Shown here piece by piece: positions 28,070 through 61,883 of a DNA stretch of 64,000 nucleotides. The position numbers and the translations under genes were made by a program. The DNA lies in NCBI GenBank assembly GCA_965214775.1, contig OZ243974.1, positions 1,344,001 to 1,408,000 on the forward strand, given 5' to 3'. This DNA is from Nitrosopumilus sp. (lineage in GTDB: Archaea; Thermoproteota; Nitrososphaeria; Nitrososphaerales; Nitrosopumilaceae). Under the pieces are notes generated by a model. The model did not search any database, was not told the origin of the DNA, and saw nothing but the letters and a program-made list of their open reading frames with translations. Each line of letters starts with the position of its first letter. Within the stretch, counting starts at the first letter, position 1.

Positions 28070-28177
28070 CCTGCACGTTTTTCTGAATTTCTTCCCTTTT
28101 GCATGAACTGGGAGATGCACACAGTTACAGTGGGACTGCTTCCTGCACGTTTTTCTGAATTTCTTCCCTTTTGCATG
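28070..28177. repeat. Repeat-spacer-repeat unit (36/36/36 bp)
   Basis: CCTGCACGTTTTTCTGAATTTCTTCCCTTTTGCATG at 28070-28105 and 28142-28177 around a unique 36 bp. Confidence 0.93.
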
Positions 28178-42593: not shown

Positions 42594-42897
42594 AAACAAT
42601 AGACATTATGCGTAATCGACCTGAACGAGATGAATTTGTTTGCAACAATCCTGGCTTTGAACCGATTACGCAGTCTAGTGCCCGTAGATGTAACTGATCC
42701 TCAAATGCTTCAAGAACTTTTGCCAGTCAGCACGGTTCATTGCGCGGGTCGGTATGGCCTTATCGGAACCGCAGGCGGAGGCAGGTCATATCTGCAGTTT
42801 TGATTTTATCTTGGTTATGTCGTTTTCTATCCTCTCAAACCGAGAGTCAAGCATCTCGTGGATGTTGGATGAAAGACTTTGGATCTCCGTTATGGTC

Positions 42898-42971
42898 TGA
42901 TCCTGCTTGTCCAGCATCTGATCCTGCTTGTCCAGCATCTGATCCTGCTTGTCCAGCATCTGATCCTGCTT
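42898..42971. repeat. 21-bp tandem repeat x3.5 encoding a KQDQMLD heptad
   Basis: TGATCCTGCTTGTCCAGCATC repeated without spacers. Confidence 0.92.
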
Positions 42972-43013
42972 CGAATCTATGGATTTCAGATACATGGAGC
43001 CGGTGCTGAATCC

Positions 43014-43126
43014 CTTGGTGGTCTCGTCGACAAGGATGCGCATCATTTTGAGGCGTTATGCCAGGCAAGGAAGAGCTTACACCTAAACTTGGTGGTCTCG
43101 TCGACAAGGATGCGCATCGTTTTGAG
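43014..43126. repeat. Repeat-spacer-repeat unit (39/35/39 bp)
   Basis: CTTGGTGGTCTCGTCGACAAGGATGCGCATC(A/G)TTTTGAG at 43014-43052 and 43088-43126. Confidence 0.92.
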
Positions 43127-44329
43127 AAGCATCAGGTTCTCTGGCGACATGTTCTTTGGAGCCTCCTCGTCCAGTCCGTTATGTTCTATGCGAAAAGTCG
43201 GGTACAGGCCTGTGCCCTCTGAATACTCGGATCGGATGTTTTTGATCAGGACTGGCCTTGGAAGGTTTCTTATCGATTCAAGCATTGCGTCGATGTCCTC
43301 CCGCCTTCTCTCGCATACGATCTCGACTGTGCCGTCCTCTAGGTTCTTGACGTATCCGTGAATCTCGCGCCGTATCGCCTCTGCCTGTACGAGGCAGCGG
43401 AGCCCGACTTCCTAGACTGTCCTTTCAAGCAGGAACGATGCCCTCTGCATACGGACAGTTGCCCTCGTGTGTATATTACAATTATGGCGTACTCATTCTT
43501 GATTATAGTGACGGGTTATTCCATGCCGGGTGGCGTGTGGACTTTGTGCGTAATCTACATAGATGAGATGAATTGTACAATTCATTCCTACGTAAAATCA
43601 GATGTGAACAGGAAGTTTGGATGAATGTTTTACGCCTGGAAAGTTGGGGGCCTGACGTGTATGACGAATTTGTTTGCAACAATCCTGGTTTTGAACTGAT
43701 TACAGTACCTGTCTGCTTATAGTGACGATTAAAAGTCTTTGATCATCAAAAAGCGCCTTCCTGGGTAGTTTATGCCCACACGTGCTCAAACTTTTAATCG
43801 CTACTATGACCACCTATCTTTTCGTTCCTTCCTAACTGACTTTGTTTTCTCTTTGAAATCCATTCCTTTTTCAAAAAATTCCGATATCAAAATTTTCATA
43901 GCAGATCGTGCTGTTTGTAAAGTGACTTGCGATCTTGTACGCAAACTCTGTTTGAACGGCCATTGCTGATGGCAGGATTCATGCCTGAACTTCCAGATCC
44001 CAAGACGCTGCGAATTTTTCCCTGATTTTGAGATCCTTTGTTATGGACTTGGCTGATGTTCCTGGCAGCCGGCATTTCCCACAAACTTTTCCCTGACTTT
44101 GATGATGTCTTTTTGCTCAAGTGCATCGGCAATCAGCTCTGCCTAGGGTTGGCCCGACACAAAATTTTACTCCAGAAAGAGAGAACTCTCTTATGCTTTG
44201 GTTCATGCTGCCCTTTGATCCCCTCAACCCCTTCAAGTTCGTTATCGGAGAGTCCTGCTCTTGGAGCATCATTCCCGTCTGTCACCATGCCGTCGAGTTT
44301 TATTGATTAATGGCCTGCCGGGACTATTC

Positions 44330-45001: not shown

Positions 45002-45274
45002 TTAAATTTCTTTAATCTCGGTAATCGTTCCCTGGACGGAATCCATCTTTACAATTGCCCTTTTTTCTTCCTCTTCCTCTCTATCTTCCTTCTCCTCCTC
45101 CTCCCATCCCAATGCCACATACCAGTCTCCTGCATCATCGTCGTATTTCGTCTCCAAAACCTTTGCTTCTTGGGGCCTGATGCTGTATTTTTTGGCTATT
45201 GCTGATACGGCTAGTGCTATTGCGTCCTCTTCCTTCTCTAGCCTTCTCTTCATCAACCCAATTCCGGGACTCAT
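45002..45274 (-). CDS. Small hypothetical protein with an acidic low-complexity stretch
   Basis: MSPGIGLMKRRLEKEEDAIALAV..WYVALGW..MDSVQGTITEIKEI; start placed at MSPG. Confidence 0.7.
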   Translation of the reverse strand: MSPGIGLMKRRLEKEEDAIALAVSAIAKKYSIRPQEAKVLETKYDDDAGDWYVALGWEEEEKEDREEEEEKRAIVKMDSVQGTITEIKEI

Positions 45275-45328
45275 GGTTTTCTCCTGCCCATCATGCAACA
45301 TATTAACTAATAAGATTGGCCTTGGGGC

Positions 45329-45436
45329 AAGTGGAATCATCATCATCGATCCATTTTTCCAGAATAGGGCGTTGACGGCGATGGTCTTCCCACTGCCGTG
45401 TAAGTGGAATCATCATCATCGATCCATTTTTCCAGA
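45329..45436. repeat. Repeat-spacer-repeat unit (35/38/35 bp)
   Basis: AAGTGGAATCATCATCATCGATCCATTTTTCCAGA at 45329-45363 and 45402-45436. Confidence 0.93.
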
Positions 45437-45490
45437 CTGGCATCACCTTTGGCAACATTTCAAATATCCCTTTTCCAGAGTGCAATCAAA

Positions 45491-46084
45491 GTGAAACTGA
45501 CCAGAATAATTCCAAAATCGTCTTTTAGAGCACCTAGCACGCTTCTGCCATTTGTATCCGTATTGGCAGTTGCCGGCCCAGTCATTGTAGTTTTTGCAGG
45601 CTTTTGGGATGCCGTTTCCCATCTTCAAAAAGAACCCGAGTTCTTTTGGAGCGCCCCCCACATGGCCGTCTATGCGGGAGTTACAATGTCTTTGTCTGGC
45701 GCGGTCTTGGGAGGCATCCTGCTTTACAAAAAATCCGTCCACAAATCCCTGAAAACCGGAATTCAGCTTGTGGTTGCCGGCTCTGTCATGCAGGCCATCT
45801 CCGGATTTGGCGACTCTCTGTCTCATGACCTTTTTGGAATTGACGGGCTGATCTCCTGGTCCCATCAACCCCTTGAACTGGGACTTGTCTTGGCGTCTCT
45901 TGGCGCCGTCTTTATAATCAAAAACAGGGAACACACAAGACTCCGGCTTTTTCTTCCATTCTCAATTGTGACATTCCTGTTTTTTGCAACCTGGCTGGCA
46001 TTCAATCTGGTTTTGATCGTCGGCCATACCGTCCAATGCATTCCTGTCTATGAAATATTCTCATCTGGCTGCGCCATACTGTAG
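45491..46084 (+). CDS. Multi-TM membrane protein with conserved W/H motifs
   Basis: WDAVSH..FFWSAPH..DSLSHDLFGIDGLISWSH; start uncertain (GTG 45491 assumed). Confidence 0.75.
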   Translation: MKLTRIIPKSSFRAPSTLLPFVSVLAVAGPVIVVFAGFWDAVSHLQKEPEFFWSAPHMAVYAGVTMSLSGAVLGGILLYKKSVHKSLKTGIQLVVAGSVMQAISGFGDSLSHDLFGIDGLISWSHQPLELGLVLASLGAVFIIKNREHTRLRLFLPFSIVTFLFFATWLAFNLVLIVGHTVQCIPVYEIFSSGCAIL

Positions 46085-60238: not shown

Positions 60239-60869
60239 GCCGAAACTATATAAAAAATAGTCAAGAAGGGGGGGGGGGTTCTAATTAGCTACTTGAATGC
60301 TGCCTAATTAGCTACTTGGCTGATTCTGCGTCCGTAGGAGTGTTCTAATTAGCTACTTGAATGCTGTCTAATTGATTAGATACTTCAATTATGATTAAAT
60401 TTCCACTCTCATTTGACTGAAACATGGGCGAATACGTGCGTAAAATACCCGTTAACCCCTCCCCCTTCAACTACCTGCAAAAACAAATCGTGGATATCAG
60501 CGATATGAACTAACAAAGTATCCAGATTACAGTAACAACTCGGGCTCTGGAAGCTGTTCCTGATTTCAGGCACGAATCTTTCTGGGAGGGCCACCTAATG
60601 TGGCAAAACTCACGCTGAACTTCCAGAGACTGAACTGTTACCAAGAAGGGAGGATGTTCTAATTAGCTACTTGAATGCTACCCAACTGATTAGCTACTTC
60701 AATTATTCTGCAAAGTCTCAAAAAATAGGAGAATCACACCCCGAATCCCCTCGTAAAAAAGGACTGCAGACCCCCCCTCTCACGCCTAATCCAAGGCCGC
60801 CCAGAATAAAGGCAGGTACGCGAAAGGAACTGGTTGCAAGATACGTGGCACACAGGATCTTATTTCACT

Positions 60870-61115
60870 CCACCGTTTGCGCAGACTGGCAAGATCGTCG
60901 CCGCATCTGTTTGCGTTCCTAGAGCATGATAACGTGTATCCCACAAACAACGGCGCAGAGTGTGCCCTCCATTACACCGTCGTCTTCCGCAAGATAAGCT
61001 GACAGATCAAGGAAGTGGAACTCTGGATGAGAAGCTAGTCGTGGTTTATGACGTGCATACTAACGTGGAGTACAAGGGGCAAATCCATGGCAGACGATGT
61101 CATGAAGCTAGTTTA
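60870..61115 (+). pseudogene. IS66-type transposase C-terminal remnant
   Basis: LFAFLEHDNVYPTNNGAECALHYTVVFRKIS* matches the PTNNxAERxLR motif. Confidence 0.7.
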
Positions 61116-61183
61116 GGGATGTGATCCCATATGACTAACGGAAACTGAAAATATTTTAGGCAGGAGTAAAAATCAATAGTATC

Positions 61184-61609
61184 ATGGCTCCTCCAACTCT
61201 CAATCTTCTTCCTGCATCGCCTCCAGCCGTCAATCCCAATGACAAAGGATACTGGTGCTGTACATGTCTGCGATGCGGCTATGTGTGGCTGTCGCGCCTC
61301 CAGCCGCGCCTCCAGCCACGCCCTCGATCATGTGCCTTGTGCAAAAGTCGTTACTGGTTCGTATCGCGAGGACAGCTCCACCGCGGACACCCTCTGGAAC
61401 CAGAGACACTCCGCAGAATTGAGGAAGAGAGGGCATTGGAGCGCGCCACAACCACAGATGAGGACCTCCGCCACCTGATGGATCTTGAGGATCAGGCCAA
61501 AGAGAGACTGGAGGCAAAAGAATCATCACAATTTCCCGCAACATGGCACCGACGTCTCTCTTCACGATTCCGCCGCCACCAAAAACCACAATCTAAAAAC
61601 ACTCCCTGA
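61184..61609 (+). CDS. Zn-ribbon protein
   Basis: CLRCGYVW..PRSCALCKSRYW. Confidence 0.7.
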   Translation: MAPPTLNLLPASPPAVNPNDKGYWCCTCLRCGYVWLSRLQPRLQPRPRSCALCKSRYWFVSRGQLHRGHPLEPETLRRIEEERALERATTTDEDLRHLMDLEDQAKERLEAKESSQFPATWHRRLSSRFRRHQKPQSKNTP

Positions 61610-61883
61610 TTGGAACGTCTCACGAAGGACAACCTGCCAAATGTGGGTGGGGTCTAATTAGCTACTTGGCTGACTGCTAGAATGATTCCAATAAAGAATG
61701 AAATCTTTAGGATGTGATGGGGGTCTAATTAGCTACTTGGCTGACTGCCAGCCTGAAAAAAATTAGGCAAAAACGGAAACTAGGCAAGAAACACGATGCC
61801 TCGAACATATCCAATCGCAAAACATCTATACTAAAAACAAAAATGATCCTTCTGATTCACATTTTGCTTGGCTGTTTTTTCAA

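Follow-up and report, generated by a model that had tools for sequence, protein, structure and literature searches.

The 113 nt at positions 43014..43126 of the window raise the question of how an acylphosphatase-like gene came to hold two nearly identical copies of a 39-nt piece of its own sequence on either side of 35 nt that are unrelated to it. The window is the whole stretch of DNA that was analysed, 64,000 nt in length, and corresponds to G000:C1:1344001-1408000 of a closed 2,833,656-bp contig, where G000 is the studied Nitrosopumilus genome. The 113-nt unit is very probably the footprint of one off-target spacer integration by the archaeon's own type I-B Cas1-Cas2, a reading that draws on the anatomy of the locus, on a genome-wide set of similar units and on the CRISPR arrays of the same chromosome. 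The coordinates of the main features are given in Table 1.

Table 1. Features of the 43014..43126 locus, the other units of the window, the CRISPR arrays and a multicopy element. Positions are those of the window unless the contig is named.
Feature	Position	Strand	Description
Host pseudogene	42786..43456	-	Acylphosphatase domain, then coiled coil with KQDQMLD heptads; interrupted by the 74-nt unit
In-frame TAG	43412..43414	-	Second independent lesion; replaces Q of VQGVG(F/L)R; all six paralogs have Q
Duplicated-target copy with G at 43119	43088..43126	-	Leader-side copy in the best-fitting orientation; encodes LKTMRILVDETTK
Spacer-like insert	43053..43087		35 nt apparent length; unique in window and genome
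Second target copy with A at 43045	43014..43052	-	Encodes LKMMRILVDETTK, runs on into the C-terminal half of the host gene
Second window unit	28070..28177		Exact 36-nt duplication 28070-28105/28142-28177; 36-nt insert; period 72
Third window unit	45329..45436		Exact 35-nt duplication 45329-45363/45402-45436; 38-nt insert; period 73
CRISPR array A2, cas-linked	G000:C1:2,420,114-2,425,007		68 repeats of 37 nt; 63/67 spacers 33-39 nt
CRISPR array A1	G000:C1:1,977,219-1,977,988		11 repeats of 36 nt; spacers 36-39 nt
Multicopy-element copies with period-75 repeat	G000:C1:113943, 228016, 794568, 1521943, 1531675, 1590841		

The two copies of the direct repeat are 38/39 identical and begin 74 nt apart, with an A in one copy facing a G in the other as their sole mismatch. 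The first-pass annotation had described a 39-bp duplication with one mismatch around a 35-mer, and both its coordinates and the identity of the copies were verified. The insert between them is single-copy in the 64-kb window with up to 3 mismatches allowed, and 0/100 shuffles matched. A BLAST search at E 1e-3 or better found no self match for it elsewhere in the 2.83-Mb genome, and exact-match scans of viral, genome and metagenome contig collections, which a diverged source would escape, returned 0 exact matches. The idea that the 35-mer is a piece of another gene is thus neither supported nor contradicted, with no source in the genome or in the three collections. The apparent duplication of 39 nt compares with CRISPR repeats of 36 and 37 nt in the same genome, and is 2-3 nt above the genome-wide mode of the units described below. 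Chance identity at the edges can add 1-3 nt to an apparent duplication length; should it account for the outer 2-4 nt of the 39-nt repeat, the insert could measure as much as 37-39 nt.

The host gene is encoded on the minus strand. Its region 43088-43411(-) matches Pfam PF00708 (Acylphosphatase) with an E-value of 9.8e-12 and a score of 45.4 bits, against a cut-off of 22.5, and a coiled coil with tandem 21-nt repeats (KQDQMLD) makes up the C-terminal part. These tandem repeats lie at window 42896-42971, and their copy number ranges from approximately 1 to 8 among the paralogs. The open reading frames 43043-43285(-) and 42786-43046(-) exist as described in the first-pass annotation. A scripted, coordinate-based deletion of the 74 nt fuses the two in frame (..LVDETTK/GFSTGSMYLK..), and the restored reading frame runs from the acylphosphatase domain through to the stop at 42786. 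Six other members of the family are present in the genome, making seven in total, and the six are 39-53% identical to the host gene over the N-terminal part. No close ortholog of the host gene was found among 40 relatives, where the best match has 36% identity.

Comparison with these paralogs indicates what the locus looked like before the unit arose. The restored protein aligns unbroken across the junction with the five full-length paralogs; the sixth is truncated and ends short of the junction, so it falls outside this comparison. The duplicated peptide LK[T/M]MRILVDETTK is present once in each of the five, which is empty-site evidence at the protein level only. The earlier proposal that the duplicated DNA is ordinary coding sequence is borne out by this single occurrence. 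The host gene is a pseudogene of the acylphosphatase family because it has at least two lesions, the TAG at the Q of VQGVG and the 74-nt insertion. The unit at 43014..43126 is best explained as an off-target spacer integration into a paralog that either was dead by then or died afterwards.

The genome has two CRISPR arrays, whose periods are mostly 71-75. No cas genes were found beside A1. The one Cas1 match in the genome adjoins A2, where the operon comprises a 591-aa frame without a Pfam match, followed by open frames for Cas7, Cas5, Cas3, Cas6b, Cas1, Cas2 and Cas4. The Cas1, Cas2 and Cas4 frames each exceed their Pfam cut-off. The operon has the layout of a type I-B system with what appears, from its sequence, to be an intact adaptation module. 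Three features together place the A2 leader at the high-coordinate end: the side on which the cas genes lie, the ATTGAAAC terminus of the repeat and where the one variant repeat is found. The leader-repeat junction reads ...CAGGCT/GTCGTAATGAC (the slash marks the junction), and can also be written GGCT/GTCGTAATG. Four of the seven leader-proximal (newest) A2 spacers are aberrant, with lengths of 57, 29, 30 and 50 nt, and the other 60 spacers measure 33-39 nt. The aberrant spacers lie at G000:C1:2424440-2425007, and the 57-nt one contains a truncated repeat.

[quoted passage not shown] The 35-nt insert falls within the 33-39 nt size range that holds 73/77 canonical spacers, and it is on size and context that the 35-mer may be called a spacer. 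A canonical CRISPR array was considered and rejected for this locus, which has two copies only, consists of host coding sequence and is unlike either repeat family. Repeat and spacer dimensions in E. coli are 28/33 nt, unlike the dimensions of 36/37 nt in the studied genome.

Units of the same build recur across the chromosome. We scanned the genome by seed-and-extend for direct repeats 30-160 nt apart, and isolated two-copy repeats outside both arrays pile up at periods 72 (15), 73 (16) and 74 (12). A seed-free comparison of 36-nt windows (at least 30/36 identical) found 17 clusters for period 73 and 12 for period 74, compared with 0-6 clusters at each of the other periods from 61 to 89 that are not multiples of 3; at multiples of 3, protein tandem repeats form a background. 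From 64 candidates at periods 68-78 we removed 6 that are the internal repeat of a single multicopy element, along with 5 low-complexity or protein repeats, and set aside 10 more with apparent copies below 33 nt or a period outside 70-76, one of which is the diverged first copy of a three-copy unit. The curated set comprises 43 units, and one tandem-amplified unit was added for the site tests (n=44). Duplications measure 34-39 nt in 38 of the units (mode 36) and 43-46 nt in the remaining 5, and periods range from 70 to 76 nt (73 +/- 1.3). The mean ectopic period of 72.9 compares with 72.1 for A2 (p 3e-4) and 73.4 for A1 (p 0.31), so that ectopic periods are indistinguishable from those of A1 and slightly longer than those of A2, and this better fit to A1 than to the cas-linked array is a point against the off-target reading.

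Almost all of the units in this genome may be young: the two copies are identical in 37/43, differ once in 5/43 and differ twice in 1/43. The first-pass annotation had noticed two other events in the window, both of which are real (Table 1), and had taken the mismatch at 43014..43126 to mean that this event is older than they are. Such an ordering is reasonable given the prevalence of identical copies, with the 43014..43126 unit among the few that carry a single mismatch. The insert of the second window unit is an exact copy of G000:C1:2405741-2405776, approximately 14 kb from the cas-linked array, and that unit lies outside long open frames. BLAST found no source in the genome for the insert of the third, a unit that lies either at or ahead of the starts of two divergent open frames, 45002-45346 (minus) and 45404-46084 (plus).

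Nucleotide-level empty sites are available elsewhere in the set. When the unit is removed, 14/43 restored sites align across both junctions to paralogous copies without a unit, with up to 99.4% identity over 157 nt. By a crude open-frame measure, 19/43 restored sites fall in open frames of at least 150 codons, compared with 78% of 2,000 random sites, which suggests that insertions in needed genes were lost. The period is not divisible by 3 in 14/19 of the units within long open frames, and these units therefore cause frameshifts.

Two loci show array-like growth. At G000:C1:1266834-1267014 the same 36-nt target occurs three times and is separated by two different inserts, one of which is from a multicopy element; the first target copy has an indel. 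At G000:C1:895395-895650 a 35-nt duplication with a 38-nt insert is repeated approximately 3.3 times as a 73-nt tandem array, as if slippage or recombination had amplified an ectopic unit. The three-copy unit has three further units within 1.7 kb of it, and one of these keeps the frame of the 567-codon open frame that contains it. The multicopy element whose copies were excluded from the counts has an internal 34-nt repeat (2 mismatches) with a period of 75 in all copies found; the repeat could represent a protein repeat, or else an old unit carried along as the element spread.

The sites of duplication are not random. On one strand, 33/44 duplications start with G (expected 41.5%, p 7e-6) and 16/44 with GT (expected 10%, p 4e-6). 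The G-start rule orients 31 units, and among these G stands at -3 in 18 units, T at +2 in 15, G at +4 in 15 and A at +6 in 14. The resulting consensus, GCT/GTCGnA, is that of the A2 leader-repeat junction. At the ten positions not used for orienting, 114/310 cells match the A2 junction, compared with 82 +/- 7.7 for equally oriented random sites (p 3e-5), and only 72/310 cells match the opposite end of the repeat. An orientation-free test gave a mean best score of 5.86 against 4.41 +/- 0.22, a value reached by 0/100,000 resamples. Ectopic targets thus resemble the leader-repeat junction of the cas-linked array. The preference agrees with that of Pyrococcus furiosus Cas1-Cas2 in vitro, whose attacks at non-CRISPR sites are spaced by one repeat length, with G preferred and with G1 and T2 of the repeat and C-3 of the leader favoured (PMC6698737).

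The duplication at 43014..43126 itself has no G at its start on either strand. Its minus-strand junction scores 8/14 (gatgctt/CTCAAAATGATG) with the letter of the other copy, and 7/14, by our own reading, with the letter of the leader-side copy. Among control sites, 2% score at least 8 and 7.5% at least 7 on the same 14-point scale.

The inserts point to the host chromosome as a major source. Over at least 80% of their length, 16/43 match elsewhere in the genome (BLAST, E 1e-3 or better), and 6 of these 16 are exact over the full length; some of the self-matching inserts hit multicopy elements. None of the 77 canonical spacers has such a self match (Fisher p 8.5e-9 against 16/43), and ectopic inserts and canonical spacers share only chance words of 9-10 nt. 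The G+C content is 51.5% for ectopic inserts, 42.8% for canonical spacers and 46.9% for random genomic 37-mers. These data fit an integrase that mostly captures host DNA, and self-matching spacers would have been purged from the arrays that make guides and tolerated beside the random-sequence 'repeats' of the units. Among the unique insert sources, 5/10 are no more than 200 kb away from the cas locus (p 0.009), a hint of a protospacer hot spot there, for an interval that was chosen after seeing the data. The mean folding energy of the inserts is -2.8 kcal/mol compared with -2.1 for random 37-mers (p 0.048), and with their higher G+C content alongside we did not count a hairpin as a feature of the inserts.

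No PAM-like motif was found in the flanks of 15 aligned protospacers in either orientation, despite the presence of a Cas4 gene. Inactivation of Cas4 is reported to alter spacer length in systems with unfused Cas4 (PMC6547450). Capture independent of Cas4 could therefore account for the lack of a PAM and also for insert lengths that exceed those of A2 spacers by 1-2 nt.

Taken as an off-target integration, the unit at 43014..43126 would have formed as follows. The two 3' ends of a spacer-length fragment would each have been joined to a different strand of the acylphosphatase-like gene, approximately 36 nt apart, at a site probably chosen for its minus-strand likeness to the leader-repeat junction of the cas-linked array. 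Gap filling would then duplicate the stretch between the two points of attack, as happens with the repeat at a real CRISPR array, and the product would be a target copy, the insert and a second target copy, with 74 nt added and the frame shifted. We infer the agency of Cas1-Cas2, the order of the strand attacks and the unprocessed state of the units from patterns in the DNA. Ectopic units are not expected to yield working crRNAs, since their 'repeats' are random host sequence, and because no working crRNAs are expected the units would tolerate copies of host DNA without autoimmunity.

We compared this genome with relatives that have or lack a Cas1 match. A Cas1 match is present in 31/81 genomes of the family with at least 90% completeness, a tally that includes G108 and G120, which are flagged as unpublished and enter into none of the other results. 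G052, which carries the same genus label and is a single contig of 1,699,898 bp, has a Cas1 of similar score and a 67-repeat array with a mean period of 71.3. It holds six isolated units with duplications of 35-37 nt, inserts of 34-36 nt and periods of 69, 69, 71, 71, 71 and 73, and 2/6 of its inserts copy its own genome. Unit periods are shorter in G052 than in the studied genome (mean 70.7 vs 72.9, p 0.002), and the canonical periods are likewise shorter. G074, which has the same genus label and no Cas1 match, gave 0 units in the first 1.10 of its 1.61 Mb. This comparison is supportive, with one genome of each kind. G052 also contains a two-repeat mini-array far from its main array, at G052:C1:43914-44022, whose 37-nt repeat is 31/37 identical to the A2 repeat.

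Sixteen listed public sequencing runs from 10 studies hold part of the window, none of them recorded as RNA, and four were examined as contigs that had been built from 31-letter words. The precise points at which duplicated words branch coincide with contig ends or starts, at 28099 (X8), 43089 (X5) and 45358 (X1, X5). Such breaks are expected if the duplications are present in those read sets, which may derive from the same strain. Among the contigs listed for the four runs, none bridges a unit or skips the 74 nt.

The five units with long duplications bear on an alternative mechanism. They combine duplications of 43-46 nt with short inserts of 26-32 nt and have normal periods of 70-76, whereas chance identity of at least 7 nt is expected in approximately 0.007 of 43 units. 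Plain ruler-based integration does not predict duplications of this length. A source is known for three of the five; in each case it runs on for 3-5 nt into the duplication, beyond which the similarity is imperfect, for example 7/9. In one unit the paralogous empty sites show all 44 nt as contiguous target. These features would suit a Cas-independent repair or replication process that adds approximately 73 nt through a short templated copy from elsewhere and a compensating local duplication: the sum of duplication and insert (70-76) is tighter than its parts (34-46 and 26-39), the shared 3-5 exact nt and imperfect homology at the duplication end suggest annealing, and no PAM is seen. We nonetheless judge such a process improbable. 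The sum is equal to the genome's own CRISPR period and shifts with that period in G052, the sites resemble the cas-linked leader-repeat junction, and no units were found in the covered portion of G074, the relative without a Cas1 match. A constant sum also follows from integration if microhomology at the spacer end moves the visible boundary. Under off-target integration, the long units would have the usual true sizes, with the end of the spacer overlapping homologous target at a junction set by the ruler, and the second strand attack would apparently be guided by microhomology between spacer end and target.

A small mobile element, or an undescribed transposase, that produces a target-site duplication of approximately 36 bp would likewise leave copies of the target on both sides of an insert, and empty sites are indeed present. 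It is very unlikely here: the 43 inserts have no common sequence or terminal repeats, 16 of them copy unrelated places in the genome, and we know of no transposase family that makes a 36-bp duplication. For the 43014..43126 unit in particular we rejected a transposon or MITE, given that the 35-mer is single-copy and the 43 inserts share at most 9-10 nt by chance. Casposons, whose target duplications are approximately 14-15 bp, resemble the units in having a Cas1-family integrase and a staggered target duplication, and differ in that they carry several genes, are bounded by terminal inverted repeats and duplicate a much shorter target. We rejected a casposon because there is no second Cas1 in the genome, the only Cas1 match being the CRISPR one. 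A native protein tandem repeat, a slippage duplication or an assembly artefact has very little probability, for although the gene family carries 21-nt tandem repeats nearby, the duplicated peptide occurs once in the five full-length paralogs, the intervening 35 nt are unrelated to the gene and break its frame, and the contig breaks in the public runs, possibly from the same strain, coincide with the branching of duplicated words.

Off-target integration of spacers has precedents in laboratory systems. In E. coli type I-E, off-target spacer integration is reported to give rise to neo-CRISPR loci (Nivala, Shipman and Church 2018; via bioRxiv 10.1101/148544, PMC7054753). As in that work, the units described here have a spacer-sized insert and a repeat-sized duplication of ordinary genomic DNA outside the arrays, and further spacers can be added to a unit, as the three-copy unit illustrates. 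Unlike the E. coli setting, the studied genome is that of a natural archaeon with a type I-B system, with no over-expressed Cas1-Cas2 or feeding of oligonucleotides, and it contains 43 fixed units, many of whose inserts come from the host chromosome. The P. furiosus study (PMC6698737) shares with our data the paired attacks one repeat apart, the preference for guanine and the leader-repeat-like sites (G1, T2, C-3); it concerns plasmids in vitro and a 30-bp repeat, unlike the chromosomal, fixed products with 36-37-bp spacing and the motif GCT/GTCG found here. In Streptococcus thermophilus, ectopic spacer acquisition is reported inside CRISPR arrays (PMC7999890, PMC5338259). Integration away from the leader-proximal repeat is common to both settings, with true repeats inside an array serving as targets there, unlike the piece of a protein-coding gene that acts as the 'repeat' here. 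The casposase that integrates casposons is a Cas1 homologue, according to a survey of thaumarchaeal mobile elements (PMC6563490), and a term search of that source gave no passage with 'off-target', 'ectopic' or 'self-targeting'. Our search of the searchable literature, which leaves subscription papers, including the genome papers on this group, outside its scope, yielded the E. coli work, in vitro studies of P. furiosus and S. thermophilus, and ectopic acquisition inside arrays; dozens of such units in one natural genome were not among the reported cases. As an off-target integration, the unit at 43014..43126 is a new natural instance of a known mechanism, and what is notable is the scale, the readable site motif and the cost of adaptation.

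The more than 40 fixed units, together with the aberrant newest spacers of A2, may point to a recent loss of integration fidelity. We suggest tentatively, with slightly less than even confidence, that the CRISPR integrase is a major endogenous mutagen and a source of new arrays in this archaeon. Off-target units within frames (19/43 sites, with 14 frameshifts) would be a direct mutational price of the adaptation module. Since the units escape interference, they would constitute a natural record of Cas1-Cas2 capture free of interference selection, and the content of this record is mostly host DNA, with no clear PAM and a target like GCT/GTCG. Units with a second insert or with amplification show how new arrays could start. 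For genome annotation, frameshifts of approximately 72-74 nt that come with a 36-nt duplication become recognisable and explicable.

Two other repeat families touch the window. A multicopy element of approximately 75 nt, with 83 BLAST matches in the genome, is present on both sides of the pseudogene (window 42598-42672 and 43540-43720), and some ectopic inserts derive from copies of it. A 45-nt repeat family containing TCTAATTAGCTACTTG lies at window 60268-61756, beside a run of G.
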